A stretch of DNA of 64,000 nucleotides from a virus (IMGVR_UViG_2609460327_000001:142308-206307); one strand, 5' to 3'. Shown: positions 12,316 to 58,475, numbered from the stretch's first letter. The notes: generated by a model from the letters alone, not told the origin. Numbers and translations: made by a program.

Positions 12316-13374
12316 ATGCCAATCACAGATACAAGGAATATCGTGCAGTTTGTGAATGAGCTTGAATCGAGGATTAATAACTTAGATCAGGACCTTTTGG
12401 ATTGGGAGAATAATAAAAGCCAAATTCTAAATGCCCTGCCTCAGATCAATCTCAACCGCACGAATGCCATCACTGCAATCGTTAAAGCAGAGGATGCACT
12501 AGCAGAGCTTAATACGGCAACTTACGGTGTCGTTGCGGCTAAAGGGCAGCGCCTTAAAAAACTGCTCGATGATCTGAAAGCACAAGTCATTGAGATTGCC
12601 GAGAATGCACCAGGCAAAGGCATTGAGATTGACTCTTACATTCAAGATGAAATCAACAATGCGATCGCCGGTGTAGACAGTGCAATTCACGATGGATTAA
12701 AGCTGGACTATCGCATTAGGCAAGTTCAGGATATGGCTCAAGAAGGAGTAGAGTTTGCTCAAAAAGAAATCATTCTTCCTTTTAGCCATAAAACAATTAA
12801 TCCATTAAATCATTATGAGGTTCAGCTCGAACCGCAAGAAGGCGTAGAGTATGTCAAAGGGGATGTGACAGTACTTGATGCCGGCGGGGATCGCGTTGTG
12901 CTTGGAACGAATCAAGAAGCCATTACTGGAACGATCTATGAGAACGGAACGATTATTCTTTCTGAGTCTCCTAAAGTGCCAGTAACGCTGATTTATCCAG
13001 CACGGCTAAACTTTAATGATGTGCCAGAAGACTTCTTGTATTACACGTTGCAAATGATGCTATCGAAGTCTAGTCCAACCCTTACATTCGTTCAGAAAGT
13101 TGAATCGATCGTAACGGAAATCCTTACAGATATCCGGTACATGAAGGGAACGAACTGGACAGTAGATCACAGCATTATGCGTAACCGAAAGGACATACTG
13201 CTGGAAAGTATCACGCCTAAAGGTTTGCAGGTAGATGTCCAAAACGGAAATGTTCACGCTATGTTCAGCTACAACGATCATCCGAACTTGAAACACTTTG
13301 TTCTGGAGAAGTTAAATCCAGAAACGAATGAGTTCGAGCCGTATGATGGGGCTGAGGGGATTATTTCTAAATGA
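12316..13374 (+). CDS. Hypothetical protein, probably structural, with N-terminal coiled coil
   Basis: 352-aa ORF with strong RBS aaggagg. Confidence 0.7.
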   Translation: MPITDTRNIVQFVNELESRINNLDQDLLDWENNKSQILNALPQINLNRTNAITAIVKAEDALAELNTATYGVVAAKGQRLKKLLDDLKAQVIEIAENAPGKGIEIDSYIQDEINNAIAGVDSAIHDGLKLDYRIRQVQDMAQEGVEFAQKEIILPFSHKTINPLNHYEVQLEPQEGVEYVKGDVTVLDAGGDRVVLGTNQEAITGTIYENGTIILSESPKVPVTLIYPARLNFNDVPEDFLYYTLQMMLSKSSPTLTFVQKVESIVTEILTDIRYMKGTNWTVDHSIMRNRKDILLESITPKGLQVDVQNGNVHAMFSYNDHPNLKHFVLEKLNPETNEFEPYDGAEGIISK

Positions 13375-14105
13375 CCGAGTTGATGAGCCGATACCAGGAA
13401 TTGAATGCAAGAGAAAAACCCGAAACTTCTAGCCGAGGGAAAAGAAATATGGCTGGTATTATTGTCAGTGAAGGATTTGCAGAACACATGAGAGTTACCT
13501 CAGGAGATCATGAACTTACGCCTGTAAGAATATCTGTCGACGGAACTGTTGCTCCTGCAGATGAAGAAACATTCTTAGCATCTAGGGCAATCCCAAGCAG
13601 AGGTAGGGGGTATAACTTTCCTCAAGAAATATTAGGAACCTTTTTTGATGGGTTGAGGACTAATATAAGGACAGATGATCTTCCGTATTATCCAGGAGTG
13701 AATCCTATTGAATTTGCTGACGAGGAAGTGCCAGAAGATGCATATACGCGCCAAGAAAGTTTCGACGATTATGCTGTATCTATTTATGCAGGTGGAGTAC
13801 CTATTCCTGGAGTCTTGAGATATGAAATGACAGAGCAATTTGAAAACAGGAGAATTGAAGGCTACTTAGAACTACAGCGTTTTGGCGGCGATTCGATTTT
13901 GTATCAGGTTGCCAGGGAGCAGGAATCCCGTATCCGAACTATGATGATACGCATGATTAGAGACAGTGGTGAAGTGATAACCCAAGACGTGACCAATGTG
14001 CACTGGATTCGCCGGACAATCAGCAGATCGGCAGGCGAAGACATGGAGACTGAGCGCTTTTATTTTACAGCTAATTCTATCAGATCATATGGTAGTGAAA
14101 ATTAA
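13371..14105 (+). CDS. Hypothetical protein with MTELMSRYQE leader; C-terminal part is reminiscent of tail-tube proteins
   Basis: ATGA overlap, RBS gagggga, shared N-terminal peptide. Confidence 0.7.
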   Translation: MTELMSRYQELNAREKPETSSRGKRNMAGIIVSEGFAEHMRVTSGDHELTPVRISVDGTVAPADEETFLASRAIPSRGRGYNFPQEILGTFFDGLRTNIRTDDLPYYPGVNPIEFADEEVPEDAYTRQESFDDYAVSIYAGGVPIPGVLRYEMTEQFENRRIEGYLELQRFGGDSILYQVAREQESRIRTMMIRMIRDSGEVITQDVTNVHWIRRTISRSAGEDMETERFYFTANSIRSYGSEN

Positions 14106-14120
14106 AGTGAGGGATTATAT

Positions 14121-14567
14121 TTGACGGAGTTAATGAGTCGATATCAGGAAAATGCAGTTCAGAAGCGAATACATCTTCAGGGGATTTTGAAATCTGGCGA
14201 AGACGGGATGAAGTTTGAAGATGGCTATGATACCATTGCCCGAACGATTGCCGGTCAGATAGCGTCTTGTAATGAATCCAGGCATCAACCGGAAGATGAT
14301 TATCGATCAGATTATTCCCTTTGTCTACCGGAAGTTTTCCTCCGATTCTATTTGAGTGACAAGAAAGTCTCGCTGGAAGAAGCAGAAGAAAAGCAGATTA
14401 TGATGTCGATCGGGGAGCTTGATATTTATACGGAATGGTACGGCTATTCAGAGTATACGATTGAAGGGTATTGTGTCGAAAACTTCACCATCGGTAACCA
14501 TGACATTGAATCGATCCTGAAGACGTATAAGGGGAAATACGCACACATCATTATGGAGATTTATTGA
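14121..14567 (+). CDS. Hypothetical protein with MTELMSRYQE leader
   Basis: TTG start after gtgagggga. First 10 aa are identical to those of the previous gene. Confidence 0.7.
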   Translation: MTELMSRYQENAVQKRIHLQGILKSGEDGMKFEDGYDTIARTIAGQIASCNESRHQPEDDYRSDYSLCLPEVFLRFYLSDKKVSLEEAEEKQIMMSIGELDIYTEWYGYSEYTIEGYCVENFTIGNHDIESILKTYKGKYAHIIMEIY

Positions 14568-14590
14568 AGGCAGCTCGTAGGCTGTCTTTA
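14567..14590 (+). terminator. Intrinsic terminator-like hairpin
   Basis: aaggcagc-tcgtag-gctgtcttt. Confidence 0.5.
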
Positions 14591-26286: not shown

Positions 26287-26294
26287 GGTAGCTT

Positions 26295-41711: not shown

Positions 41712-41759
41712 GCACTATATGTTGGGGTTTTTCGAATGTCAAGACTTTAAATGTAGAAA
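41712..41759 (+). promoter_or_regulatory. Tandem NrdR-box-like sites
   Basis: gcactatatgttgggg (41712-41727) and actttaaatgtagaaa (41744-41759), 32 bp apart, upstream of nrdI-nrdA-nrdB. Confidence 0.55.
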
Positions 41760-41791
41760 AATATAGAATACAATAACAATTGCACACTAAA

Positions 41792-41805
41792 TGTAATGCG
41801 TTACA
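41792..41805. promoter_or_regulatory. Operator TGTAATGCGTTACA
   Basis: Recurrent palindrome just upstream of the nrdI RBS. Confidence 0.75.
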
Positions 41806-41821
41806 AAAAGGAAGGTTTCAC

Positions 41822-44453: not shown

Positions 44454-44662
44454 TCGATGTATCAAGCGAAATATTGATCTGGTATGTATGGGCCACCGCC
44501 ATCATCGGTGGCCTTACAGCCTTGGGTCTACTCATATGGTTCATGATCTGGGTCTGGGATCATACACTCAATTCCATATTGGTCATGTTTAAAATCAAGA
44601 TGCTATTTGCTGAATTTATGCGTGACCATTACAGGGGAAAACAAAACAAGAGAGAAGAGTGA
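44450..44662 (+). CDS. Small membrane protein between the RNR subunits
   Basis: ATGA overlap with nrdA; hydrophobic helix. Confidence 0.6.
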   Translation: MIDVSSEILIWYVWATAIIGGLTALGLLIWFMIWVWDHTLNSILVMFKIKMLFAEFMRDHYRGKQNKREE

Positions 44663-45699: not shown

Positions 45700-45726
45700 G
45701 AATAATAAGAAAAGAGGATAAACAAC

Positions 45727-46176
45727 ATGGAATTAATGCAACCGTATCAATACGAAGGCAAAGGACTAGACTACGCTTACGACCAGGTGAAAGCTTTCCA
45801 AAAAGCGTTTAATCATCCAGTTAGCGAACTGCCGACATTCATGAATGCAGAGCGTGCGGCAAAGCGAATGAATTGGGTTAATGAAGAAGTACAAGAGTTT
45901 TTGGATTCTAAAAATGTTGTCGATCAAGCTGACGCTATGATTGATGTGATCTACTTTGCTATTGGCACACTGGTAGAGCTAGGCGTAAAACCTCAAGAAC
46001 TCATGGATATCGTTCAGAATGCAAACATGAGCAAATTATGGCCAGACGGCAAACCTCATTACAAAGAAGACGGCAAAGTAATGAAGCCTGAAGGATGGGA
46101 AGATCCTTACGAAAAGCTCGCTGCAGCGATTGCCCGTCAATATGATACAGCAAGAGAGAACCTTGCGGGAGCTTAG
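45727..46176 (+). CDS. MazG-like (DR2231-type) NTP/dUTP pyrophosphohydrolase with MELMQPY leader
   Basis: EEVQEF...DAMIDVIYF...ANMSK...DGKVMKP. Confidence 0.8.
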   Translation: MELMQPYQYEGKGLDYAYDQVKAFQKAFNHPVSELPTFMNAERAAKRMNWVNEEVQEFLDSKNVVDQADAMIDVIYFAIGTLVELGVKPQELMDIVQNANMSKLWPDGKPHYKEDGKVMKPEGWEDPYEKLAAAIARQYDTARENLAGA

Positions 46177-46202
46177 GCTCCTCTTGGTACATAGGAGGCC
46201 AT

Positions 46203-46391
46203 ATGGCTTACGAAAATGCAATCCGCTGCCTCGAAGAACGGATCGGTGTATATCGCCGGATGAGAGATCGACATATGAGAACGAGCTATAACATAAACAC
46301 AAGGATTGGAGAAATGGAATCAGCAGTTCGCGTCCTTAAAACAGCTCAGAGTAGACAAGAAAAATTTGAGAAAGTCAGCCAGAAGCAATAG
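46203..46391 (+). CDS. Small hypothetical protein
   Basis: RBS aggagg, 62 aa. Confidence 0.6.
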   Translation: MAYENAIRCLEERIGVYRRMRDRHMRTSYNINTRIGEMESAVRVLKTAQSRQEKFEKVSQKQ

Positions 46392-46407
46392 TCCAGGAGG
46401 ACCGCCT

Positions 46408-46617
46408 GTGGAGTTAATGAAAAAGTATTATGAGCGCTGCGGCGTGATTAATGATCCGCCTAAGAAGCCAAGAGTAGTAGTAAGTGAGAAGGCTTTCAAT
46501 TGCCTTCATGGCGGACAGGGATATGACTTAATAAGGGAAGCTGTTGAACTAGAAGTCGAAAGACGCATTCGGCTACAAGAAGCTCACTTAAAAGCGTTCA
46601 ACTCGTTATTTAGATAG
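46408..46617 (+). CDS. Small protein with MELMKKYY leader
   Basis: GTG start after aggagg (inside track ORF 46306). Confidence 0.65.
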   Translation: MELMKKYYERCGVINDPPKKPRVVVSEKAFNCLHGGQGYDLIREAVELEVERRIRLQEAHLKAFNSLFR

Positions 46618-46632
46618 AAAGGAGTCATCACT

Positions 46633-46965
46633 ATGGAACTTATGCAGGAATACAGAAAGAGATTTAGACAATCAACTGCTGCGGAAATCCTGGAAAGAAT
46701 TAAGTCAAGCGGAATAATCGAAGGAAGAATGAAAAGAAGTAATGAATATGGAAAAAATCTGTTTGAAGAAGAGATTCAAGCTGAACTTGAAAGAACCCTA
46801 ACTAGAAGAGTGAGTGATGCTATTGAAGTTCCATATGTAGGCATGCCGAATAATGAGTTAAATAGACAAAGACTAACGGGCGAAGTGCAGAGAACGCTTG
46901 AAGATCTAAGAGGGGGAAACCTGCGTGGAACTATTCCGCCCGTATTTAAAACGTCACGTCTATGA
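46633..46965 (+). CDS. Protein with MELMQEY leader
   Basis: RBS aaaggag. Confidence 0.65.
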   Translation: MELMQEYRKRFRQSTAAEILERIKSSGIIEGRMKRSNEYGKNLFEEEIQAELERTLTRRVSDAIEVPYVGMPNNELNRQRLTGEVQRTLEDLRGGNLRGTIPPVFKTSRL

Positions 46966-47230
46966 CAACATGGGAGTCAGTAATATGGTTTCTGAAATCG
47001 CAAATGAAACGTTAAGAGATATGCAATATCTTATGCTGACTCCCGAAAACCTACAGATCATGGGCAAAGAGATATCAAAGAGGGCAGCAGGAAGGTTGTC
47101 TGGTCTTATGGATGACAAGCTTTACTTCGATGTTATGGTTGTATTGGGTCAAAACAATAGCGCGAATTTAATATGGGATATTCGGGATTGGGAAGGCAGA
47201 GCTGTAGAGGTAGAAAGGTTGATACCATGA
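46925..47230 (+). CDS. Protein with MELFRPY leader
   Basis: GTG start after gaggggg. Confidence 0.6.
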   Translation: MELFRPYLKRHVYDNMGVSNMVSEIANETLRDMQYLMLTPENLQIMGKEISKRAAGRLSGLMDDKLYFDVMVVLGQNNSANLIWDIRDWEGRAVEVERLIP

Positions 47231-47970
47231 CTGAAATTACAATAGAACAGCTGTACGATTTTAAAACCTGCCCCTTGCAATATAAGTTTACAAATATCGA
47301 TAAACTGCCTCGCTTAAAGACAGAGGAAAGCAAGGGGCTTCGTGAAGTTATGCTGGCCACGATCAGCTATTATTATGTCAACCTTCATGAAGGTAAATTT
47401 CTTACACTGAGTCAGCTGAAGGATAAGTTTACAAGCCTTTGGTATGACAAAGATAAAATCTATAAGATCAAGTTCGACCAGAAGCAGAATCAGCGTAAGA
47501 AAGAGCTTGAGGCTTTCGGCATGCTGGCACTATTCCATCGACAGCAGCAGTACAACCCGGATAAGACCGTCGGTGTTAATGTGGACTTCCGACTAAAGAT
47601 CGATCCGGACTTTCATATTGTGGGGCGTATTCCTGTGATCAGGGAAACGCCAGGCGGTAAACATGAGATCGTAAACTTTCAAACAAGAGTACAGCGCCCC
47701 ACCGAGTTCTATCAGCGGACAGATATGGGCATCACACTACAGGCATTAGCTTTTCATTCAATGTACAGAAAAGAAGTAGATACGTATGTATTGCATCATT
47801 TAAAGACCTCTCAGTCCATCTATGTAGATCGGAAGCGTGCAGACTATCAAAGACTGTATAAGTCAGCTCGAATGCTTAAGAAGTCGATGGACGAAGGCTG
47901 GTACTACCCTCGGGAAGGTTTCCACTGTGATAGCTGCCCGACTCAAAAATATTGCATGGAGTGGCGCTAA
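47227..47970 (+). CDS. PD-(D/E)XK (RecB/Cas4-like) fold protein with degenerate catalytic motifs
   Basis: FKTCPLQY...CDSCPTQKYC Cys set; GRIP and IVNFQT where GRID and I.DYKT are usual. Confidence 0.7.
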   Translation: MTEITIEQLYDFKTCPLQYKFTNIDKLPRLKTEESKGLREVMLATISYYYVNLHEGKFLTLSQLKDKFTSLWYDKDKIYKIKFDQKQNQRKKELEAFGMLALFHRQQQYNPDKTVGVNVDFRLKIDPDFHIVGRIPVIRETPGGKHEIVNFQTRVQRPTEFYQRTDMGITLQALAFHSMYRKEVDTYVLHHLKTSQSIYVDRKRADYQRLYKSARMLKKSMDEGWYYPREGFHCDSCPTQKYCMEWR

Positions 47971-48332
47971 TGGAATTAATGAGAAGATATAGGCTAAATA
48001 TCAGCGAAGCAGAGGAAAAAAGCAACGACCAAGTAATGAGACTGGCTGGAAATATCGTTTATGATGTATTAAAACGTCGTGTCATAATGGATCGCTTTGG
48101 CGGTCCCTCGGTAATAAATAGAGCAGATATGGAAAAAGAAATTTATGATAATTTACTGACCGCTGGTCTTGCTTATCATGTTCGTGTCTTAATAAATAGG
48201 CAATATACTAACTGTCAGATTCGCTATATGAGATCCAAAAAAGCGGGAGATTTAACAGGCGTAATGGATGAACATGATCTTGAGCGATACAAGGAAGAAG
48301 GGATAGTTCCACCTCATGGAATTAGATGGTAG
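47970..48332 (+). CDS. Protein with MELMRRY leader
   Basis: TAATG overlap with the preceding stop. Confidence 0.65.
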   Translation: MELMRRYRLNISEAEEKSNDQVMRLAGNIVYDVLKRRVIMDRFGGPSVINRADMEKEIYDNLLTAGLAYHVRVLINRQYTNCQIRYMRSKKAGDLTGVMDEHDLERYKEEGIVPPHGIRW

Positions 48333-48338
48333 AAGCCT

Positions 48339-48599
48339 ATGGAGATGATGAAAAGATATCAAGATCGTCATAGGAACGTGACAAAGGTTCCTACGTCTAC
48401 ACCAAGAACGATAGGTATGGATCGGCCAAAGGGTACTATTGTGCATGAAGGAGTACGTCCACAAGGCAGAGGAACGAAGAAAGTAAACACATGTGGGTGG
48501 CCAGAAGAGGATAAAGCGTTTCGGAGATTTGGGTGGACAATGGTAGGGGTTGGCATACTCGTTATCATTTCGTTTATTGTTCAGAACTTGGGGGAGTAA
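48339..48599 (+). CDS. Membrane-anchored protein with MEMMKRY leader
   Basis: C-terminal TM helix. Confidence 0.6.
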   Translation: MEMMKRYQDRHRNVTKVPTSTPRTIGMDRPKGTIVHEGVRPQGRGTKKVNTCGWPEEDKAFRRFGWTMVGVGILVIISFIVQNLGE

Positions 48600-48603
48600 T
48601 CAT

Positions 48604-49098
48604 ATGGAGCTTTTGTCAAACTACCAGCAAAAGGTAAGGGATGAAATTAAAGATATATATTTAAGAGGACACAAGGGCACTGGGCAGATTATAGGTTGGA
48701 ATATACCGGTGCCGGTTGATGTGAGAGAAGAGATAGAGCGAATATCCATACAACCTGCGACTATTCTTCAGGACCCTGGAAGTGTTACGTATATACCGGA
48801 AGAAATACGCAACTGGCAAGATCTACTCGAAGAAGAGCAGCGTCGTTCCGGGGATTCCGACATTGTAGATTATAGTCGAGAAGCTGAGAGAATATTCGAA
48901 GATAGAAGGCTTGAGGATGCTAGGCGACGGGCGCAAGAAAGAGAAGAATTAGCAGCCAAAGCACTTGCTGACTTAGAAAAAGCTGCAAAGACAAGAGAAG
49001 CCACAAAAAAGAAAGAAGACCGAATATGGCGGATCACAATAGTTACAGGATCTTTATTGATATTATCATCAGTCATAAATGCATTTCTAAACTCATAA
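48604..49098 (+). CDS. Membrane-anchored coiled-coil protein with MELLSNY leader
   Basis: RBS gggggag, C-terminal TM helix. Confidence 0.6.
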   Translation: MELLSNYQQKVRDEIKDIYLRGHKGTGQIIGWNIPVPVDVREEIERISIQPATILQDPGSVTYIPEEIRNWQDLLEEEQRRSGDSDIVDYSREAERIFEDRRLEDARRRAQEREELAAKALADLEKAAKTREATKKKEDRIWRITIVTGSLLILSSVINAFLNS

Positions 49099-49113
49099 AA
49101 GGAGCGAATTAAT

Positions 49114-49482
49114 ATGTCAACAATAACAAGCAGCACCCGCAAAGAGTCTTTCGATCTGGTTAAACAGGATGTAGCAACTCGTCAGAACATCATACATAGC
49201 TTTCTTCTTCAATATGAAGATGGCTTAACAGCTAACGAAATTGCAGCTAAAATGTACGAGGCTGACCTCTTAAAAGGATGGGATCGCAATCTGGTTCATC
49301 CGAGACTAACAGAAATGACAATGTCCGGAAGAGTAAGAGTTGAAGAAAGAAGAAAATGCAGTATTACCGACCGATCTTGTGGAGTGTATATAGCTGTTAC
49401 TGATGAAGAACTCCAGGCTTATATGGATCAAATCAAAGAACAAGACCTCTTTATAGATTTTTCACAAACTACTGAAAAGTAA
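49114..49482 (+). CDS. Winged-helix DNA-binding protein
   Basis: GLTANEIA...VHPRLTEM...G.V. Confidence 0.6.
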   Translation: MSTITSSTRKESFDLVKQDVATRQNIIHSFLLQYEDGLTANEIAAKMYEADLLKGWDRNLVHPRLTEMTMSGRVRVEERRKCSITDRSCGVYIAVTDEELQAYMDQIKEQDLFIDFSQTTEK

Positions 49483-49484
49483 AA

Positions 49485-49498
49485 TGTAACGTGTTACA
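49485..49498. promoter_or_regulatory. Operator TGTAACGTGTTACA
   Basis: Recurrent palindrome upstream of the protease gene. Confidence 0.7.
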
Positions 49499-49541
49499 AT
49501 TATAGAAGATAGGATACAGGGTGAAAACATAGGAGGAAACT

Positions 49542-50435
49542 ATGAGTGACACCCAAACGGACTATAAAGTCGTCCAAACCCATGGCGCAGAGATGCGCGA
49601 TGACATTATTGATTGGGGCATTGAAGCCGTAAATGCACCCGATGTATGGAATACCACAACCGGTAAAGGAGTCAAAGTGGCTGTCCTTGATACGGGCGTG
49701 GATCGTGATCATCCAGACCTGCAGCCGAACTTGAAAGTCTATGCAGACTTCACTCGCTCTCCTTATGGGCCTGAAGACAAGCAGGGGCATGGAACACATG
49801 TTGCTGGCATCATTGGAGCGGCAGACAACGGAATAGGAGTTGTAGGGATCGCACCTGATGCAGAGCTGTATGTCGCAAAAGTCCTTGGAGACAATGGAGG
49901 AGGCAACTTTCAATCCATTATCAATGGCTTGCGATGGGCAATTGAGCAAAATGTAGATATCATCAACATGAGTCTCGGCTGCGCAAGCGAGCCGCCTCTG
50001 GAATTATACAAAGTTATTAAAGAAGCGGCTGCCGCGGGCATTATAGTTGTTGCTGCTACAGGCAATGAAAATACAGGTGTATGTTGGCCAGCCATGTATG
50101 ACGAAGTAATCGCTGTATCTGCAATGTCTCCAGGGAAAGAAAGAGCTCCATTCAGTAACTATGGCATAAAGAATGAAGTCATGGCTCCTGGTGTAGACAT
50201 CTTCTCTACGTATAAAGATGGAGGCTATGCGAAGCTATCCGGCACCAGCATGGCAACGCCTATTATCTCCGGATGTATTGCACTGTATATTAGCTTCTGC
50301 AGAGGGCAAGGAGTAGAGCCCACGCTGGAAGAAGTTCATGCAAAGCTAGAAGAATCCTGTGAGGATTTAAGTATTCCAGGCAGAGACATTTATACTGGCG
50401 ATGGACTTATCGATCTCGAAAAATTAATCGGCTAA
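49542..50435 (+). CDS. S8 subtilisin-family serine protease, no signal peptide
   Basis: Catalytic triad motifs VAVLDTG, HGTHVAG and SGTSMATP. Confidence 0.95.
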   Translation: MSDTQTDYKVVQTHGAEMRDDIIDWGIEAVNAPDVWNTTTGKGVKVAVLDTGVDRDHPDLQPNLKVYADFTRSPYGPEDKQGHGTHVAGIIGAADNGIGVVGIAPDAELYVAKVLGDNGGGNFQSIINGLRWAIEQNVDIINMSLGCASEPPLELYKVIKEAAAAGIIVVAATGNENTGVCWPAMYDEVIAVSAMSPGKERAPFSNYGIKNEVMAPGVDIFSTYKDGGYAKLSGTSMATPIISGCIALYISFCRGQGVEPTLEEVHAKLEESCEDLSIPGRDIYTGDGLIDLEKLIG

Positions 50436-50437
50436 TA

Positions 50438-50464
50438 GGAGGGGCGAAATCCCCTCTTTTTTTA
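50438..50464 (+). terminator. Intrinsic terminator
   Basis: gagggg-cgaaat-cccctc followed by a T run. Confidence 0.75.
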
Positions 50465-50475
50465 TGCAGAAATTG

Positions 50476-50504
50476 TGTTATAATGTAAAACGTAACGCAT
50501 TACA
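50476..50504 (+). promoter_or_regulatory. Extended -10 (TGtTATAAT) followed by operator CGTAACGCATTACA
   Basis: -10 at 50479-50484, operator at 50491-50504. Confidence 0.7.
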
Positions 50505-50556
50505 TTTTAAGTAAACAAGAGATATAGAGACTATAATGGAGAATGGTGGTGAAAAC

Positions 50557-50697
50557 ATGGGAGGATATCGTATTATTGAAGACCTAGGTCGTGGTGTATT
50601 CACGGAAGATTTAGCACCTAAGAAAGGAGATGTCAAAGAGAATGAGGATCGGTCCGAAAAGGAATTGGGCAGTGGAAAGCCAGCAGACGGAGAGTAA
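50557..50697 (+). CDS. Small hypothetical protein (46 aa, not in the ORF track)
   Basis: ATG after ggtggtg, MGGYRIIEDLGRG. Confidence 0.45.
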   Translation: MGGYRIIEDLGRGVFTEDLAPKKGDVKENEDRSEKELGSGKPADGE

Positions 50698-51094
50698 GGA
50701 AGATGAGAAACTTGTAAAGATGTCAAAAAAGTCCGAACAAGGAGTCACGAACATTGACTTTATCTTGGAGCCGGAGCAGTTTGATGAACTTGGCCGCACC
50801 TGCAGACTAACCTTCGATGAGTTCTGCGCTGTCATGAATAAGATCGCTGACGAGGAAGAAGCTGAATGGGACGAGCTCCGAATGAAAGATCAGGTGAATA
50901 TTACTCGTGATGCTATCTTAGAGGCGACAGTTTTGAAGTATGTAAAGCAAGAATACGGACTTGATCCAGAAAAATTTACTGGGCGTGATCTTAATTACAA
51001 CAAGCGATACGATAGTGAAGGACGCTTCATTGGTGAAGCATTAATTATCACATGTATGCACATTCCCACGATGGCAATGAAGGTGAATAAATAA
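50630..51094 (+). CDS. Hypothetical protein (start uncertain)
   Basis: 154-aa ORF coupled to the next gene. Confidence 0.6.
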   Translation: MSKRMRIGPKRNWAVESQQTESKEDEKLVKMSKKSEQGVTNIDFILEPEQFDELGRTCRLTFDEFCAVMNKIADEEEAEWDELRMKDQVNITRDAILEATVLKYVKQEYGLDPEKFTGRDLNYNKRYDSEGRFIGEALIITCMHIPTMAMKVNK

Positions 51095-51348
51095 TGGCTA
51101 AAAATACAGACATCTTAATGATCATAGAGGGCGAAACCTCCTGTGTTAAAACAGTAACCAAGCTAAGTCATATAGATGTGATCGGATTCGATAGTCTCAC
51201 GAAAGAAGCAATGAGGGGTAAGCAATACGACAAAGTGTTACTTCCTTTATCAATGAGGGAGTCCGAGGGTCATATAAAGGTGCTTCAGATTATCAAGCCA
51301 TTAGTATTGATCCACGACGACTTCGATATTCGCATTATTTACTACTAA
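51094..51348 (+). CDS. Hypothetical protein
   Basis: TAATG overlap. Confidence 0.6.
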   Translation: MAKNTDILMIIEGETSCVKTVTKLSHIDVIGFDSLTKEAMRGKQYDKVLLPLSMRESEGHIKVLQIIKPLVLIHDDFDIRIIYY

Positions 51349-51361
51349 GGAGATACCGATC

Positions 51362-51946
51362 ATGGAAACACTTATCCTGCCGATGATGATGTTCGGGAGC
51401 TATAAGTCTTATGAGAAAGAAAAGGACCCCGTCACTGGAAGATGGAAGATTAAAAAGGAGTTAAACGGCAAGGGCAAGCTAAAGCCAGTGAAGAAAGTTT
51501 ACACCCATGTAGAGGCACTTGGAGACCCTGGTTTCTACCCTTCCGTTAACCATATCTATGAAAATACAGGCAGAGGCGGCAAGAAGCTGACGAAGCCGGC
51601 AGAAGATCTATTTGAAAAATGGCACGCCTTGGCTTATGCTTGGAGCTTAAAAAATGATTGGAAAATGACGACAAAAGATAAAGTGGTTCTTGAACTTACA
51701 GCCTACTTTCCAGATGAGAAGAAACGCGATACTCATAATGTCTTTAAGCTAATGATGGATGCTTTAGAAGGCGTCATTTACAAAAACGACCACTATGCCC
51801 TGCCAAGAGTAAAAGATTTTCACTATTTAGAAAAAGACTGCGGCATTCAGCCTTACTTCGAGCTTCGGATCTTCCGGAAAGCTGACGAGATTGACCCGGA
51901 GGATGTGAGGAAGGAATATGAAGAAGCAAGACGATCCGCTTCATAG
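51362..51946 (+). CDS. rusA: RusA-family Holliday junction resolvase
   Basis: PSVNH...RDTHNVFKLMMDALEGVIYKND. Confidence 0.75.
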   Translation: METLILPMMMFGSYKSYEKEKDPVTGRWKIKKELNGKGKLKPVKKVYTHVEALGDPGFYPSVNHIYENTGRGGKKLTKPAEDLFEKWHALAYAWSLKNDWKMTTKDKVVLELTAYFPDEKKRDTHNVFKLMMDALEGVIYKNDHYALPRVKDFHYLEKDCGIQPYFELRIFRKADEIDPEDVRKEYEEARRSAS

Positions 51947-52697
51947 TTATCTTGAAGAAGGCGATGCCAATCCTCTGATGAGAAGATATCACAAGATGAT
52001 ACGAAGATACAGCAGGCTTCTTGTCTACGGAGAAATGGATTTTAAAAGCTATGATTCTAAGCGATTTATATCCTGCTTCATTCGGGAAGCTGAAATCATC
52101 AATGATCTTTGTAAAGCTGGAGGATGCAAAAGCGAAACGATCGAGAAGGTTTATGATGTCATCAAGAACATTCGAGACACTTTCTCCGTCTATGATATAG
52201 CGGAGATCGAGCATGAGCTGCTAATCGTATTGTTAGAATGTGCGCACTCCTATAAAGAAATGGGATTCGGCTTTAGCCGATATGTATACAGTGTGTTTAG
52301 ATACCGAGTAAAGCGGTTTGTGGATAATAAGATGTTCGAGAGTATGGAAGAAGAGCAGTACTCTTACAAAGATGACCGCTACATAAATGACGATCGAGCC
52401 ATAGACAGCATCATAGAAAACAGGTATTATTATGAGCCTCTAAATATGGAGGTTGATGAGTATACTGAACTGGACAATATTCTGTGGTTGAACGGCATAG
52501 TAGGTAGCGATTTGTTCAAAGAACTGAGTTATAGCGAAAGATTTATTCTTCTTAAGGCTTACGATGAAGGCATGACAGATAGAGAGATTGCTCGAATTAA
52601 CGGGCTCCATCATCGATCTGTTTATCGCATTCGAAAACGAATCGCTGATAGCTTCCGCGAAAAACGTGTAAAGGGAGAAATAAAATGTCTACGATGA
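51918..52697 (+). CDS. Sigma-70 family RNA polymerase sigma factor (phage-encoded)
   Basis: Region 4 LSYSERFILLKAYDEGMTDREIARINGLHHRSVYRIRKR; region-2-like GFSRYVY. Confidence 0.75.
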   Translation: MKKQDDPLHSYLEEGDANPLMRRYHKMIRRYSRLLVYGEMDFKSYDSKRFISCFIREAEIINDLCKAGGCKSETIEKVYDVIKNIRDTFSVYDIAEIEHELLIVLLECAHSYKEMGFGFSRYVYSVFRYRVKRFVDNKMFESMEEEQYSYKDDRYINDDRAIDSIIENRYYYEPLNMEVDEYTELDNILWLNGIVGSDLFKELSYSERFILLKAYDEGMTDREIARINGLHHRSVYRIRKRIADSFREKRVKGEIKCLR

Positions 52698-52933
52698 TGA
52701 ACTTTAACGAGAACACTATGATTGCTGGAGTTGCCACCTTGGATTGTTCGAACAACTTAAATCATTTTCCATTGGAACTAAGACTGAAAGAAATCACTGA
52801 ACGAGATAACTATGTTGTTGCAGGAAATCTAATTGTACCCAGTAAGTTCTTTAATCAAATTGTCTTATGCAACCGAGAAATGTATTCAGATCTCACAACC
52901 GAAGATGAAGAGGCAGTAAGCGGAGATAATTAA
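52685..52933 (+). CDS. Hypothetical protein
   Basis: RBS aagggag. Confidence 0.55.
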   Translation: MSTMMNFNENTMIAGVATLDCSNNLNHFPLELRLKEITERDNYVVAGNLIVPSKFFNQIVLCNREMYSDLTTEDEEAVSGDN

Positions 52934-52950
52934 GTTTATCTCCGCTTTTC
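52918..52950 (+). terminator. Intrinsic terminator
   Basis: Stem aagcggagataa/ttatctccgctt followed by tt. Confidence 0.7.
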
Positions 52951-52952
52951 TC

Positions 52953-53005
52953 TTGATTCCTTCTATTATCTCGTTTATAATTGAAATGTAACGCATTACA
53001 TTTCA
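52953..53005 (+). promoter_or_regulatory. SigmaA promoter (TTGATT-17-TATAAT) with operator tgaaaTGTAACGCATTACAtttca at +1
   Basis: -35 at 52953-52958, -10 at 52976-52981, operator core at 52987-53000. Confidence 0.8.
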
Positions 53006-53018
53006 TAGAGGGGGTCGG

Positions 53019-53882
53019 ATGATGGCGGGATTGCTTCAAACCTATATCGAACGACATCAAAAAGAGAAACTAGCCAATGAAACAAGGCCGATGAGAAAGC
53101 TTCATCCATCTACGATCGGCATGTGTAAGCGGAAAATCGTATTCGATATGCTTATGGTTCCGAAGCCAGAAACTGATCCGCAGCTCATCCGAATCTTCGA
53201 AAATGGTCATAGCATGCATCACCGTTACGAGAAGTTGTTCGCTGATATGGGAATCCTCGTTCAGGCAGAAATGAAGTTAGAACGGGACGATATCAGCGGA
53301 CATACGGATGCGCTTATCAGTATTCCAAGCTTTCTAAATCCCTTTGGGGAGAAGTTCTTGGTCGAGCTAAAGAGTGCATTCAGTCATAGCTTTAAGTGGA
53401 TGAAAGAAAACAATAAACCAAAGGCTGAACATAAGGCGCAGCTTACGTTTTACATGCATCTATCTGGCATCCACAAAGGAATCATTTTCGTTGAAGAGAA
53501 GGACACACAAGACGTTTGGGAATACCACATGAATTATGACCCTGTATACGGCAAGAAGCTAGAGCAAAAAGCAAACGAATGTATACAGCTGGCCAAAGAC
53601 AGAAAGCTCCCTCCGCTTGAAAAAGGATATACGCCGAGCAATTATAAGTGCAAAGATTGCCCTTTTAATATCTACTGCCACTCAGATAGTGCCAAGAATG
53701 ATGGTAGTATCCGTAATCCTAATCCGTTCAACTTCGGCAGCGAAGCTTACAAGGATGTCGAAAATATCAGAGCTGCTATAAAAGAAGGCAGACCTATCCC
53801 CGACGTAATCACCGGCGACACAAATGGAGATCTTGTGCGCGAAGTAGCTGAGAAAAATATAACTTTCTCAAAGGTGGATTAA
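53019..53882 (+). CDS. Cas4-like PD-(D/E)XK exonuclease
   Basis: PSTIGMC, GHSMH, SGHTD, LVELKS, QLTFYM and CKDCPFNIYC motifs. Confidence 0.8.
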   Translation: MMAGLLQTYIERHQKEKLANETRPMRKLHPSTIGMCKRKIVFDMLMVPKPETDPQLIRIFENGHSMHHRYEKLFADMGILVQAEMKLERDDISGHTDALISIPSFLNPFGEKFLVELKSAFSHSFKWMKENNKPKAEHKAQLTFYMHLSGIHKGIIFVEEKDTQDVWEYHMNYDPVYGKKLEQKANECIQLAKDRKLPPLEKGYTPSNYKCKDCPFNIYCHSDSAKNDGSIRNPNPFNFGSEAYKDVENIRAAIKEGRPIPDVITGDTNGDLVREVAEKNITFSKVD

Positions 53883-53885
53883 CTT

Positions 53886-54182
53886 ATGTACATCGATATC
53901 GGTTTTGGAAATTTCATTGAAGAAAGCAAGATCATTTCAATCAGTCGTCCAGACAGCTCACCAATACGTCGCATGATGACTCAAGCTAAAGACGATGGGC
54001 GCTATGTGGACATGACACAAGGAAGAAAAACACGCTCCATCATTCTAACTAGCGGCGTAGGAGGCATGGTTGTTATTGGATCGCCTGTAGCTCCAACTAC
54101 TGTTGTAAAGCGCGCAGATGGAAGATTTGGGCCAATTATTTCATCGCTCGACGTGATCGGGGAAGGCCAGTCGAAAGATTAA
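53886..54182 (+). CDS. remA: RemA (YlzA/DUF370) family regulator
   Basis: IDIGFGN...PDSSPIRRMM..AK..G..VDMTQGRKTRSII matches RemA. Confidence 0.85.
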   Translation: MYIDIGFGNFIEESKIISISRPDSSPIRRMMTQAKDDGRYVDMTQGRKTRSIILTSGVGGMVVIGSPVAPTTVVKRADGRFGPIISSLDVIGEGQSKD

Positions 54183-54204
54183 TCGCAAGGAGAGCGAGTC
54201 ATCT

Positions 54205-57200
54205 ATGATCAATCATTTACATGTACACTGTGAATACTCAGAGCTTGATGGTCTTTCTACCGTAAAAGACCTCGTCAAGCGTGCAAAGGAAATCGGTAGC
54301 TCCGCGCTCGCCATTACGGATCACGGCGTTTGCGGGGCTATTCCCGATTTTATAACCGCATGCAAAGAGGAAGGGATCAAGCCGATCCCAGGCTGCGAAG
54401 CTTATATGACGAAGAATCGTCACCTTAAAAGTGATTTCCATAAAGCTTCAAAAGCTATTTTTTTAGAGAAGTATGGCATCAAGGATAAGGCTTGGAAGGC
54501 ATTTCGGAAAGCAGTAAGAAACAATCCTGACAACTTTATGCTTGAAGCTCGGGAGCTGCTGAAGGACTATATCATGCGTGAAGATCTTAAGTCTATGGCT
54601 AGTGGATCAGAAGAAGAATTAGACTTGTTCGGTTTCGGCATGATGGAAGAAGAGAAACCACTCGTTGTAGGGTTTTCGCCAGACGATGCGCTTGAAGACT
54701 TCCGGAAAGAGTTCTATGAATTAATCAAGCATGATAACTTTCATATTGTCCTGATGGCCACTAACCAACAAGGATTGGAGGACTTATATGAAATTATTTC
54801 AGATGCTCATATCAGCGGTTTTTATAGTAATCCTCGTACTGATCTTGCCTTTATTCGTGATCGTGGTCTTGGCAAGCACATTATTGCTACCTCTGCTTGT
54901 CTTGGTAGTTACCTTGCTCGCTTTGCCCTTGCTGGTGATCTGGCAGAGTGTCGCTCATTCATACAAGAGTGCAAAGACACGTTTCACTCATTTTATTTGG
55001 AAAAGCAGGCAACGCGCATTCCAGAGCAAATCAGGCTTAATGAAATCATTGACCAACTGGCTCTGGAAACAAACACGCCGAAAATCGTAACAACAGATGT
55101 TCACTATGCCAATAAAGACGACCGTGACATCCACGATATTCTAGTTGCATCCAGTATGAATAAGTGTATTCATGATAACGACCGCTTGATATACGCTCAT
55201 GAGTTCTGGATGAAATCAGAGGATGAGATTCGTGAGATTATTAATGATGATGAAGCCATTGAAAATACACTCAGAATTGCAGAGTTGGTCGATGTAGACT
55301 TGCCTAAAGATCCTTTGTTCCCTAAATACATTGTTGATGAAAATGATACAGCGGAAGAGCAGCTAGAGAAGCTGGCATGGAACCGGCTGTTCACCTACAC
55401 ATTAAAGACGCCGATTGATCTGGAGCAATATAGTCAGCAGCTACAATATGAGCTGAGTGTTATTAATCCACTTGGATTTGCTGATTACTTCCTGATTGTA
55501 TCTGACTATATCAATTGGGCGAAGGAAAATGGATTCGAAGTCGGACCTGGAAGGGGATCAGCTGCCGGCTCACTCGTTGCTTTCGTTATTGGTATTACAA
55601 CGATCGATCCGATTAAATGGGATCTAATGTTTGAGCGCTTCCTGAATCCAGAACGCGCAGGCTATCCAGATATCGACGTAGACTTCTCGTATGAAGGCGC
55701 TAGAGCTGTACAGGAATACATGAAGCAGAAATACGGTGATCTTAACGTAGCTCAGATTGGCACCTATGGAACTCTTGCAGGTAGATCGGTTATTCGTGCA
55801 GTTGGTAAGGCACTTGGATACAGTGCGCAGGATCAAGACCGGTTTGCGAAGTCTATCCCTGAAACGCCAGGCATTACATTAGACAAGTATATTAATAAAA
55901 ACGGAAAAGAAGTGGATGGTGCTTATCAGATATCACCTGAAACTCGGATGTATGCAGATAGATATCCTGAATGGTGGCAAGCTGCCAAAGCACTTGAGGG
56001 ACACGTCAGAAGTGCAGGAGTGCATGCTGGAGGCATCGTTCTTTCACCTAAGCCGCTTACGAACACTGTTCCTCTTCGACTGGATAAGGAAGGACTTACG
56101 ACAACTCAATACGATATGGAGTGGATCGAAAAGTTCCTAGTTAAATTCGACATTCTTAAACTGTCTACACTCGACCTGATCAAGAAGACAAAACAGAATG
56201 CAGGGATTATGGATCTTGATCTGAATACAATTGACTTTAATGATCCGAAGATTTATGAAGAAATTTATAATAAGCTGAATCTCTCAGGAATCTTCCAGTG
56301 CGAGTCTGATTTATTCCGCGGAATCATTAAAGACATGGAGCCTTCAAACGTAGAGGATATTTCCGTTATCGTAGCGCTAGGCAGACCAGGACCACTCGAC
56401 CTTATTCCCTCTTATATCCGAAGAAAGAAAGGACAAGAGAGAGTTACTTATCCGTTCGATAGCTTAGAGCCGGTTCTTGGAAAGACGTATGGTATTTGGG
56501 TCTACCAAGAGCAGATCATGAAAGCTTCCATGATTCTTGGAGGATTCACTACCGGTCAATCTGATATCCTGCGTAAAGCCATCTCGAAAAAGAATCACGC
56601 ACTAATGGAAGAATGGATCAACTACATGATCTATGGCAGCGCTGAAAAAGATGCTGAGCTAATCGCTAAAGGCAAAGAGCCACTTAACATTCCAGGAGCT
56701 ATTTCCCTTGGATATGACGAGGCAACACTTCTTAAAATCAAAGAAGACTGGATCAAGTTCGGTGACTACTGCTTCAACTATGCGCATAGCGCTTGCTACG
56801 CAGTACTCTCTGTTATGACAGCTTATCTGAAGGCTTACTATCCAACAGAGTTTATGGCTGCGCTCATGACAATCTCAGAGGGCAAGCTGAAAGATGGTGT
56901 TCCCCGTAACGTTGCATACATGAAAGAATGCGAAGAAATGGGAATCAGCATCCTGCCACCAGATATCAACTACTCTAACGACAGCTGGACACCAATCAAT
57001 GCTCAAGAGGGCGAAGAAGGTCTTGGTAAGATTTTGTATGGCCTTGCAAGTATCGCAGGAGTCAGCAGCAAAGATCTTGATGTCATTACGGAATGCCGAC
57101 CATTCAAAGAATTTGATGATTTCTTATTGGCCAATAGAACAATGAAACTCAATAAAACAAAAACATCCAATCTCATTAAGTCCGGAAGTTTCGATACAAT

Positions 57201-57660
57201 ATCCGACAACCGCAATCTCTTATTGCGCAGATATTTCGAATACCGCGGCGAAGAGTTTGAACATATGCCATCCAAAACAACGAAGAAGGACATTATCGCC
57301 TATGAGCGTGAAATGCTCGGCACAAATGTAAGCATTCGTTCTCGGTGGGATAGCATTGAAGATGGCAGAGAGAATATCACGTTCACCGGCTACATTATAG
57401 AGTCTAAGCCTTTCACAGCCAAGAGTAGCGGCAAGGTAACAGGTAAGGCGAAGATAGAGACGGCAGAGGATGAATTGAGTCTAGTCATCTTCAATAAGAT
57501 ATGGAGCAAGAATGCAGATGACTTCATTATCGGACGCAAGATTAAAGTCGTCGGCAAACGAAGCGGTTCAGATCTCATCGTAGATAAAATTACGTACATG
57601 GATCATGCCGAACAATCGGAAGAGGAAATAATGAATCAGTTCCAGGTGGAATTTAGCTAA
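54205..57660 (+). CDS. dnaE: DNA polymerase III alpha subunit
   Basis: PHP motifs HLHVH..YSELDG and TDHG; GPGRGSAAGS, PDIDVD, HAGG, KFDIL and FNYAHS. Confidence 0.95.
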   Translation: MINHLHVHCEYSELDGLSTVKDLVKRAKEIGSSALAITDHGVCGAIPDFITACKEEGIKPIPGCEAYMTKNRHLKSDFHKASKAIFLEKYGIKDKAWKAFRKAVRNNPDNFMLEARELLKDYIMREDLKSMASGSEEELDLFGFGMMEEEKPLVVGFSPDDALEDFRKEFYELIKHDNFHIVLMATNQQGLEDLYEIISDAHISGFYSNPRTDLAFIRDRGLGKHIIATSACLGSYLARFALAGDLAECRSFIQECKDTFHSFYLEKQATRIPEQIRLNEIIDQLALETNTPKIVTTDVHYANKDDRDIHDILVASSMNKCIHDNDRLIYAHEFWMKSEDEIREIINDDEAIENTLRIAELVDVDLPKDPLFPKYIVDENDTAEEQLEKLAWNRLFTYTLKTPIDLEQYSQQLQYELSVINPLGFADYFLIVSDYINWAKENGFEVGPGRGSAAGSLVAFVIGITTIDPIKWDLMFERFLNPERAGYPDIDVDFSYEGARAVQEYMKQKYGDLNVAQIGTYGTLAGRSVIRAVGKALGYSAQDQDRFAKSIPETPGITLDKYINKNGKEVDGAYQISPETRMYADRYPEWWQAAKALEGHVRSAGVHAGGIVLSPKPLTNTVPLRLDKEGLTTTQYDMEWIEKFLVKFDILKLSTLDLIKKTKQNAGIMDLDLNTIDFNDPKIYEEIYNKLNLSGIFQCESDLFRGIIKDMEPSNVEDISVIVALGRPGPLDLIPSYIRRKKGQERVTYPFDSLEPVLGKTYGIWVYQEQIMKASMILGGFTTGQSDILRKAISKKNHALMEEWINYMIYGSAEKDAELIAKGKEPLNIPGAISLGYDEATLLKIKEDWIKFGDYCFNYAHSACYAVLSVMTAYLKAYYPTEFMAALMTISEGKLKDGVPRNVAYMKECEEMGISILPPDINYSNDSWTPINAQEGEEGLGKILYGLASIAGVSSKDLDVITECRPFKEFDDFLLANRTMKLNKTKTSNLIKSGSFDTISDNRNLLLRRYFEYRGEEFEHMPSKTTKKDIIAYEREMLGTNVSIRSRWDSIEDGRENITFTGYIIESKPFTAKSSGKVTGKAKIETAEDELSLVIFNKIWSKNADDFIIGRKIKVVGKRSGSDLIVDKITYMDHAEQSEEEIMNQFQVEFS

Positions 57661-57678
57661 TAAGAGGAGGAGTCATCT

Positions 57679-58023
57679 GTGAATCTCATGGAAGTCTATT
57701 TAGATCAAACTGTCGAGAGCTTTATGCTCTGGATAGTAAATAAAAGGAAGCAAACCGTATCTCTGACGGTGTCACGATTAGAGGAGTTTAGGCCCCATCC
57801 GGACTATTCAGATGTAACACAGGGCAAAGTCATTATTGAAGAGTGGGTCATGGAAGAACTTAAAGACGATCCATCTATGGATGGATGGGAAGATCGCATG
57901 CGTGTTTTGATGATGAAATTCATAGGCGGGGGAGAGCGGGCATATCAAATTGTCTATCATAGGCTTGGCCGGCAAATGGACGGTAGCTGGCTGCTCACAT
58001 TCAATTGTAAGGAATACGAATAA
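57679..58023 (+). CDS. Protein with MNLMEVY leader
   Basis: GTG start after gaggaggag. Confidence 0.65.
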   Translation: MNLMEVYLDQTVESFMLWIVNKRKQTVSLTVSRLEEFRPHPDYSDVTQGKVIIEEWVMEELKDDPSMDGWEDRMRVLMMKFIGGGERAYQIVYHRLGRQMDGSWLLTFNCKEYE

Positions 58024-58475
58024 TGGAATTGATGAGCACTTATCTAAAAAGAGATCTGGATGTATATAAATGGCTATTCTCTATGAAGCTGAATGTTCCT
58101 GAAAGTGAAAAGCATTGGCATGAAGAAAACATGGCGCTTATTTATAATCCAATGACGGATGAAATTATTAAAGGCTATGCTACTTCTGTAAAGATCGAGA
58201 AACTTAATGATCACATATATTCAAATACGACTGGCTCGTTTGATATGCACTTGCGTCCTTCGAGTGCATTCACAACTTCAAGAGTAATCGCAAGCATACC
58301 TTTTACATTTAGCAATTTAAAAGATATGAGAAAATTTATAGAGTGGCAAGATAGAACCTCCATTGAAATACTTACTAAGCAGCATTTCATAAGAGGAATC
58401 ATTGTTGGCACGCTCGTCTTTGATGGATCCATTTATACCGACCTTGAGGCAGTTCATATTGAGACAAAAGTATAA
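58023..58475 (+). CDS. Protein with MELMSTY leader
   Basis: TAATG overlap. Confidence 0.65.
   Translation: MELMSTYLKRDLDVYKWLFSMKLNVPESEKHWHEENMALIYNPMTDEIIKGYATSVKIEKLNDHIYSNTTGSFDMHLRPSSAFTTSRVIASIPFTFSNLKDMRKFIEWQDRTSIEILTKQHFIRGIIVGTLVFDGSIYTDLEAVHIETKV

Follow-up and report, generated by a model that had tools for sequence, protein, structure and literature searches.

Why should at least 11 proteins with unrelated bodies, encoded at three separate loci of one stretch of viral DNA, begin with almost the same eight residues? The question arises in IMGVR_UViG_2609460327_000001, a 206,307-bp virus record rated complete by CheckV, of which the window analysed here (64,000 nucleotides) comprises bases 142,308–206,307, its 3′ end. 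A preliminary description of the window had noticed the N-terminal peptide M-(T)-E-L-M-x-x-Y and proposed that it is a portable docking signal, giving packaging into the virion in the manner of phage T4 as one example. Comparison of the complete genome with its relatives strongly supported a tag that is portable and maintained at the peptide level, apparently bolted onto unrelated accessory proteins, and weakened the T4-like example. This N-terminal peptide is called the leader below.

By its sequence, the genome is that of a Bacillales jumbo myovirus related to Bacillus phage 0305phi8-36. PHROG matches revealed genes for a large terminase, a portal, a major head protein and a tail sheath. The major head protein shared 61% identity with its counterpart in Moorella phage MTATph1 and 46% with the one in 0305phi8-36. 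IMG/VR holds 24 related loci, 21 of them with major head proteins of 74%–94% identity and several on contigs of 190–229 kb; the names assigned by the sources to homologues and records were Paenibacillus (as 'plasmids'), Alicyclobacillus and Bacillus. Genes were called over the full genome with our own simple caller, which scored codon log-odds and ribosome sites, selected genes greedily and made no use of the motif; it returned 229 genes with 92% coverage. Eight related, leader-bearing genomes including the present one (G000), with guanine-plus-cytosine (GC) contents of 34%–52%, formed the clade set. The outgroup set consisted of three phages, namely 0305phi8-36, MTATph1 and a 195-kb contig from a metagenome-assembled genome (MAG contig; 64% head-protein identity).

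The leader and the genes that carry it

Across the clade, the consensus of the leader was M1-E2-L3-[I/V/M]4-x-x-Y7-[L/I/M]8. Position 7 was Tyr in 79 of the 86 clade N-termini that start MEL[IVMLFAT], and the other seven had Q, Q, L, D, R, K and A there, Phe and Trp being absent. With the rest of the motif given, position 2 was E 70, N 4 and D 2, position 3 was L 70, M 3 and C 1, and position 4 was I 27, V 20, M 15, L 8, A 6, T 2 and F 1, varying with the phage lineage (mainly Met in the present genome, Ile or Val in the other clade genomes). Position 8 was L 43, I 12 and M 7 (n = 86). Positions 5, 6 and 9 were polar or Ala, and position 10 leant towards Arg, Asn or Lys (R 25, N 13, I 10, T 9; n = 110), with no conservation further on. 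From this pattern we infer that residues 1, 3, 4, 7 and 8 would form one hydrophobic face of a helix, residues 2, 5, 6, 9 and 10 being polar. The leader is confined to the extreme N-terminus and kept in a fixed register: no residue was inserted after Met1 in 70 of 79 cases, and the motif occurred at a rate of 9.5e-3 per N-terminal position versus 9.4e-5 in protein interiors. It was not enriched in the C-terminal 40 residues (8 found, P = 0.21), where a few cases occurred, for example in a nuclease family with NELINQY at the C-terminus in two relatives.

The leader genes in the window, with their start codons (ORF, open reading frame), are as follows.

13371–14105, + strand: ATG, MTELMSRYQE (Thr inserted after Met), 244 residues, ORFan in the tail/baseplate module
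14121–14567, + strand: TTG, MTELMSRYQE, 148 residues, body matching phrog_20281 (E = 2e-19)
45727–46176, + strand: ATG, MELMQPY, 149 residues, MazG-like (PRA-PH) nucleotide pyrophosphohydrolase (E = 7e-17)
46408–46617, + strand: GTG, MELMKKY, 69 residues, ORFan
46633–46965, + strand: ATG, MELMQEY, 110 residues, ORFan
46925–47230, + strand: GTG, MELFRPY, 101 residues, ORFan
47970–48332, + strand: ATG, MELMRRY, 120 residues, ORFan
48339–48599, + strand: ATG, MEMMKRY, 86 residues, predicted C-terminal hydrophobic anchor (tail-anchored)
48604–49098, + strand: ATG, MELLSNY, 164 residues, predicted C-terminal hydrophobic anchor (tail-anchored)
57679–58023, + strand: GTG, MNLMEVY, 114 residues, homologues in two relatives starting MELVEQY and MELIEAY
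58023–58475, + strand: ATG, MELMSTY, 150 residues, ORFan directly upstream of an amidase endolysin

The preliminary description had listed 13 starts, all of which proved to be real with codons and peptides as given, and its 11 strong cases are those tabulated here. Its further statements that the start codons vary among ATG, GTG (46408, 46925 and 57679) and TTG (14121), that a MazG-like enzyme and two proteins with C-terminal membrane anchors (48339 and 48604) are among the carriers, and that the genes occupy three separate loci were likewise borne out. The first locus (13371 and 14121) lies between giant tail genes, the second (45727–49098) between ribonucleotide reductase and a subtilase, and the third (57679–58475) is flanked by the genes for DNA polymerase III alpha and the endolysin. 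The 13371 protein had no Pfam or PHROG match and no homologue in seven related genomes, and the 14121 protein showed a faint match to Tad6, below the cutoff. A sigma-70 promoter scan of window positions 39500–59000 gave 50 sites versus 44.6 expected and thus no information on timing.

The two weaker cases of the preliminary description did not hold. The N-terminus at 53022 is the family-specific helix of a conserved nuclease and is shared with an outgroup homologue, and the protein at 40903 was left out of the counts because it lacks E2-L3 and is off register. The nuclease itself (window 53019–53882, + strand) has a Cys cluster, and in two relatives its C-terminus carries the leader-like sequence NELINQYI or NELVTQY.

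Predicted N-termini matched M(M/T)?[EDN][LM][MLFI]xxY in 22 of the 229 called genes, and no internal match to the Met-initiated core was found in the 63,163 residues of the genome's predicted proteins. A six-frame nucleotide scan of the whole genome for a start codon followed by [EDN]-[LM]-[MLFI]-x-x-Y also gave 22 matches, none of them outside gene starts: 19 fell on called starts, one at start+1 and two at small uncalled ORFs, which are listed here.

G000 58426, − strand: uncalled leader ORF of 81 residues
G000 7243, − strand: uncalled leader ORF of 52 residues

Together with the two genes starting MTELM, these matches extended the 11 proteins of the preliminary description, all inside the window, to 24 carriers, or approximately 10% of the genes. 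In exact register, the motif was present at 19 of 229 N-termini versus 1 of 1671 internal Met residues of the present genome (Fisher p = 3e-17), and at 91 of 1822 N-termini versus 10 of 11,672 internal Met residues of the eight clade genomes (p = 5e-68), with 3–24 per genome. It was found at none of the 693 N-termini of the three outgroup phages, none of which begins MEL, and no other over-represented N-terminal word was found there.

At the DNA level, a strict pattern with ATG at codon 4 and a relaxed pattern with NTN at that codon were compared with reversed-pattern controls. The strict pattern gave 13 sites in the present genome (control 0) and 0 in five complete relatives, in which the relaxed pattern gave 17, 11, 10, 12 and 15 sites (controls 0, 0, 0, 0 and 2). 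Elsewhere, the relaxed pattern had no site in 0305phi8-36 or the Moorella phage, one each in two other Bacillus jumbo phages, and six in an Acinetobacter phage, all with TTG starts (control 1). One host assembly had 13 matches to the ATG pattern on its 198-kb phage contig versus 2 on the other 3.4 Mb (control 2). This N-terminus is therefore essentially absent from the one host chromosome examined, which argues against mimicry of a common host signal; the leader is specific to the phage clade.

Conservation of the peptide and its gain by unrelated proteins

When 91 leader starts of the eight genomes were aligned as a DNA logo, the GGAGG site at −13 to −8 was the same as that of 1,730 other genes, and no upstream conservation beyond this ordinary ribosome site was seen. 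Within the coding part, information was concentrated at codon positions 1 and 2, and the wobble positions carried 0.02–0.1 bit (0.02–0.07 bit at positions 9, 12, 15, 18 and 24). All six Leu codons served Leu3 (TTA 20, CTC 17, CTT 16, CTG 15, TTG 12, CTA 7; TTY never), Glu2 was encoded by GAA in 43 and GAG in 40 cases, and the identical 10-residue leaders at 13371 and 14121 had five synonymous differences in 30 nucleotides. Given the random wobble, the use of all Leu codons and the wide GC range, it is the peptide that is conserved and not the DNA, as the preliminary description had judged from synonymous variation; selection acts at the peptide level. Translation from a second Met, which that description had named as a way in which its reading could fail, was ruled out: a GGAGG-type ribosome site lies 7–9 nucleotides upstream of the first start codon at each listed start, a spacing suited to codon 1, and most relatives have Ile or Val, not Met, at position 4.

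It is extremely improbable that the leader represents a nucleic-acid element (RNA or DNA) where translation begins, such as the operator of a translational repressor, or that the carriers are one divergent paralogue family, even though the conservation overlaps the start codons and the genes are clustered. A start-codon operator was rejected for lack of nucleotide-level conservation, given the random wobble, the ordinary ribosome site as the only upstream feature and the six Leu codons in use. As for paralogy, 103 carriers were collected from the eight genomes with a pattern allowing up to two inserted residues and leaving out proteins of at least 400 residues; those left out included a conserved family of 594–624 residues starting MIQVR..QY, which was judged to be a chance match. 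After removal of the leader plus three residues, the carriers fell into 66 single-linkage BLAST families, of which 51 were singletons. Iterative phmmer/hmmsearch on the trimmed proteins left 68 families unmerged, and hidden paralogy was therefore rejected; moreover, MazG-like, dUTPase and Tad2-like domains belong to distinct Pfam families. Among the 24 trimmed bodies of the present genome, the lowest pairwise BLASTP E-value was 0.015, in agreement with the earlier view that the bodies are unrelated.

Homologues with and without the leader supported its portability. The preliminary description had suggested checking whether relatives of the 45727 enzyme outside the phage group lack the peptide, and this was the case: the MazG-like protein is 57.5% identical over residues 7–138 to a protein of Brevibacillus phage Jenst that has a different 59-residue N-terminus and no leader, whereas in two clade orthologues (72% and 69% identity) the N-termini read MSELVGAYQ and MNLTETYM. 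The 14121 protein had 25 homologues among 5.8 billion proteins, with the leader present in 3 and absent in 22. The three closest (71%–100% identity), from two contigs of 206–215 kb and one of 1.7 kb, start MTELMS(R/Q)YQ; the 22 leaderless ones (39%–57% identity) begin at an IHLxG motif that corresponds to residue 17 of the window protein. The absence of the leader from homologues outside the clade implies that it was bolted on. Within the clade, 14 of the 22 called carriers of the present genome had no homologue in the other seven genomes. The remaining eight had 22 best matches there, 16 of which fitted the strict pattern, while six deviated slightly from it, either by Thr or Ala at position 4 or by a single inserted residue.

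Most carriers are small, rapidly evolving ORFans that stand in tandem arrays in replication and nucleotide-metabolism regions, with a median length of approximately 120 residues. Their median isoelectric point (pI) was 5.6 versus 5.8 for 1,264 other proteins of 45–300 residues (P = 0.33), and a hydrophobic segment was present in 4 of the 103 (three C-terminal, none N-terminal) versus 119 of the 1,264. No Sec-, Tat- or lipoprotein-type signal peptide was detected, a hydrophobic 19-residue window being found at the N-terminus of none of the 103 carriers and residues 9–17 being mixed or polar. Domain scans took in 101 carriers, two that cross locus borders being omitted. Pfam identified PRA-PH/MazG-like domains in three, Tad2-like domains in three (best E = 2e-11), a dUTPase in one and a helix-turn-helix/sigma region 4 domain in one; PHROGs and NCBIfam added a sigma-factor family (three carriers) and one transposase, and approximately 85% of the scanned carriers had no match in Pfam, PHROGs or NCBIfam.

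The three sigma-factor-family carriers were not counted as true leaders, having two inserted residues and a native ELIxxYQxxGD N-terminus that also occurs in 0305phi8-36. Members of this family lie at window 51918–52697 (+ strand), G001 190695, G004 127355, G005 77777 and 0305phi8-36 113986, and, judging from the resemblance, this N-terminus may be the evolutionary source of the leader.

Adjacent carrier pairs numbered 11 in the present genome, where approximately 2 were expected, and an excess was likewise seen in six of the other seven genomes. Single ORFs with two or three in-frame leader-like motifs (for example, at residues 1, 45 and 65) were also observed; these repeats have the appearance of adjacent leader genes that have fused or are decaying, or else of nested starts in the same frame.

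L102:3214–3696 (G004 123214–123699), + strand: multi-leader ORF
G001 196430, − strand: multi-leader ORF
G001 195852, − strand: multi-leader ORF

The only carrier family found in every clade genome is represented here by a 154-residue protein (G000 11781–12245, − strand). Its 13 members in the large database all had the leader, two of them with over-long annotated starts, and a profile search of the ESM Atlas and PDB gave no usable match. The gene stands in an operon (L004:7247–13620, − strand) with an SNF2 helicase (1081 residues), a DUF6094 methyltransferase-like protein (420 residues) and two unannotated proteins; the methyltransferase-like protein had no match in 50,697 cultured phage records.

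Candidate readers and rival explanations

We consider it probable that the portable tag has one shared reader. The amphipathic two-turn helix of the leader, joined to the body by a short unconserved linker, would dock into this cytoplasmic partner in the infected cell, and the reader would set the fate of the tagged proteins, be it processing, turnover or assembly. A cytoplasmic setting is consistent with carriers that include cytosolic enzymes and a Tad2-like domain and have no N-terminal hydrophobic segment. That the reader is both cytoplasmic and encoded by the phage is a possibility that we put forward tentatively. A comparison of gene content between the leader-bearing genomes and the three outgroups, made to find it, showed that the proteins shared by the other five complete clade genomes and the 97%-complete G010, and missing from the outgroups, are mostly unannotated. 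The annotated candidates were a beta sliding clamp, a single-domain AAA protein and a Peptidase_S8 subtilase; these are given here together with two other genes.

49542–50435, + strand: candidate reader, Peptidase_S8 subtilase of the intracellular type, adjoining the leader array
L005:6185–7837 (G000 26185–27837), − strand: AAA protein, 550 residues, single ring, closest to VAT/Cdc48/p97 D2, with a conserved 235-residue N-domain and a full-length match to phrog_8638 (E = 1e-113)
L004:3581–4918, − strand: beta sliding clamp, 445 residues, approximately 30% identity among clade members
53886–54182, + strand: RemA-like protein (Pfam E = 9e-22), directly 5′ of the polymerase gene, found in G010 and all complete leader-bearing genomes examined but in none of the three outgroups
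54205–57660, + strand: DnaE-type polymerase III alpha subunit

The catalytic triad of the subtilase is intact, and its closest known counterparts include subtilisin BPN′ and intracellular serine proteases. It aligns with BPN′ residues 4–271 from its own residue 23, which leaves no room for a long prodomain; the lack of both this and a signal peptide assigns it to the intracellular type. Its gene was 1–3 genes from a leader gene in all seven genomes, whereas the nearest leader gene was 17–27 genes from the AAA gene and 12–65 genes from head-module genes. Subtilases favour a hydrophobic residue at P4 and a large hydrophobic one at P1, and the spacing of leader positions 4 and 7 fits such a substrate: a cut after Tyr7 would place Tyr at P1 and Ile, Val or Met at P4, although cleavage is a prediction only. 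At the position aligned with BPN′ Gly166, the seven clade subtilases have Gly or Cys and two leaderless outgroup enzymes have Asn and Met; at that aligned with Tyr104, six of the seven clade enzymes have an aromatic residue and the outgroup enzymes Leu and Val. We take these two positions to line the S1 and S4 pockets.

Several observations weigh against this line of thought. No clade-specific protein with an informative annotation in Pfam or PHROGs co-occurs with the leader. The proximity of the subtilase to the leader array reflects shared synteny and does not amount to seven independent events, and the enzyme is also conserved in the leaderless MTATph1 and MAG contig. Since the AAA protein and the subtilase both occur in leaderless outgroups, they could only be pre-existing readers, not ones invented together with the tag. 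Finally, a subtilase would not account for the conservation of E2 and L3, for the constant spacing from Met1 or for the fact that Phe, Leu and Met are excluded at position 7. The subtilase in particular, although the most concrete and most readily testable candidate, would be an improbable reader.

Intracellular subtilisins carry an N-terminal pro-peptide, [LVI]-[IFLV]-P-[YFH], which lies across the active site (PMC6220982). This LIPY/F pro-peptide resembles the leader in being a short N-terminal peptide with aliphatic residues and Tyr or Phe that occupies the cleft of a cytoplasmic subtilase, but it forms residues 6–9 of the enzyme itself, whereas the leader presents L-[IVM]-x-x-Y at residues 3–7 of other proteins and has no Pro. 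A motif of the LIPY/F type was not found among the leaders, in which two variable residues precede Tyr and Pro stood at x6 in only 5 of 110. With regard to the clamp, whose binding peptide (PIP-like motif) we take to be Qxx[LIM]xx[FY][FY], the leader fits in the spacing of positions 4 and 7 but has an aliphatic residue at position 8 and Met at position 1; a clamp-binding role is unlikely in view of the membrane-anchored and sponge-like carriers. A 417-residue gene between terminase and portal was considered as a clade-specific docking platform and dropped because the outgroups have ORFs in the same place.

The main rival to a cytoplasmic reader is capsid targeting of the T4 type, in which the leader would dock cargo to the prohead scaffold or shell and effectors would be packaged and injected with the DNA. 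In T4, the first 10 residues of internal proteins suffice as a capsid-targeting sequence (CTS), residues 4 and 7 deciding targeting and residues 8 and 10 processing (PMC9026906); the CTS is portable to foreign proteins (PMC9026906, PMC3012670), and it is all that the T-even internal proteins, diverse inhibitors of defence, have in common (PMC3012670). In phage P1, DarB's N-terminal signal, longer than 9 and at most 30 residues, suffices to send a reporter into the capsid, and the Dar proteins have no consensus in common (PMC9024508), whereas the present consensus is sharp and shared by dozens of proteins. The leader may work like a CTS: like that of IPI–IPIII, it is an N-terminal peptide of about 10 residues on diverse, polymorphic accessory proteins, it is portable, and the positions decisive in T4, 4 and 7, are hydrophobic or aromatic here. 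The large capsid, the DarB precedent and the resemblance of some carriers to counter-defence proteins (Tad2-like, and the faint Tad6 match) point the same way. However, T4 tags a handful of basic virion proteins with a protease site at residues 8–10, whereas here the carriers, 24 in the present genome, are acidic on average, show no basic bias and include MazG-like and dUTPase enzymes and three predicted tail-anchored membrane proteins. No conserved residue marks cleavage after position 8 (position 10 was Arg in only 25 of 110), head-module proteins lack the leader, the nearest leader gene is 12 or more genes away from the head genes, and approximately 10% of all genes would have to be cargo. 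With no fixed cleavage site, non-basic carriers that include enzymes and anchored proteins, and the distance from the head module, the leader was not filed as a CTS, and we regard packaging as unlikely.

Two further rivals dispense with a phage reader, and to each we attach a rather small likelihood. The leader could bind a single conserved protein of the host, for example a protease adaptor, a chaperone or a component at the ribosome exit site or in the replication machinery, so that tagged proteins would be delivered to, or protected from, a host pathway. The near-identical leaders of clade members from Paenibacillus, Alicyclobacillus and Bacillus records would suit such a target, as would the lack of any annotated phage receptor from the gene-content comparison and a fixed N-terminal register of the kind expected for recognition of a free N-terminus. 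The host chromosome itself, however, lacks this N-terminus (2 matches in 3.4 Mb, equal to the control), position 4 drifts by phage lineage, and we know of no Bacillales degron that matches the leader. Alternatively, there might be no reader at all: an intrinsic N-terminal cap, acting on stability or early elongation with a non-specific benefit, would have spread by tandem duplication and grafting. The tandem arrays with their excess of adjacent pairs, the ORFs with two or three leader copies, which suggest fusion and decay in arrays, and the mostly genome-specific carriers with their 51 singleton families accord with such a history. A non-specific cap is difficult to reconcile with the residue specificity of E2, L3 and Y7 (Tyr and never Phe) across 34%–52% GC, with gain of the leader by bodies that function elsewhere without it, and with its absence from sister phages that have the same ribosome sites and similar arrays.

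Relatives of the phage and meaning of the tag

Two observations concern the wider biology of these phages. Near relatives (records P0003, P0016 and L106) have been deposited as plasmids, or form entire contigs of their own, in isolate assemblies of Paenibacillus, Alicyclobacillus and Bacillus, which suggests a plasmid-like carrier state or pseudolysogeny for close relatives of the phage. In addition, two ORFs of approximately 325 and 275 residues take the place of an undivided large terminase gene in G002 (29143–32502) and G003 (71303–73442), which suggests an intervening element; in G002, extra ORFs stand between the halves.

Our literature search found no account of this motif in the accessible text of the sources covered, among them a comparative paper on 0305phi8-36 (PMC2147016) and a review of jumbo phages (PMC7824862), supplements lying outside the search. 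Few examples of a short portable tag on phage proteins are known: the T4 CTS and P1 DarB, each concerning a handful of virion proteins. Here, a sharply defined eight-residue tag is found on approximately 10% of the genes of a jumbo phage and on more than 60 unrelated families, mostly ORFans, across eight related genomes. In the apicomplexan PEXEL/TEXEL motifs and in the cargo peptides of encapsulins and microcompartments, one terminal motif likewise directs many unrelated proteins to one protease or shell; the analogy is one of logic only, as organisms, motifs and machinery differ.

If the tagged proteins share a fate, the leader provides a handle on dozens of proteins without an assigned function at once, and it makes the sorting and timing of accessory proteins by phages a concrete, testable question. 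Those who engineer phages of Gram-positive bacteria, or the hosts themselves, would also find in it a minimal tag ready for use. In its most far-reaching form, the proposal is that the leader constitutes a phage-owned code for sorting the proteome, an eight-residue tag on about a tenth of the proteins read by a dedicated cytoplasmic machine of the phage, which we hold to be somewhat doubtful. Candidates for the reader would then be the subtilase of the intracellular type, the Cdc48-like unfoldase and some clade-specific protein that lacks annotation, and the tagged, rapidly evolving early effectors would be activated or removed as a set and on schedule. Such a code, if real, would represent a phage-owned pathway resembling an N-degron or licensing system, which captured genes would join by acquiring the tag.

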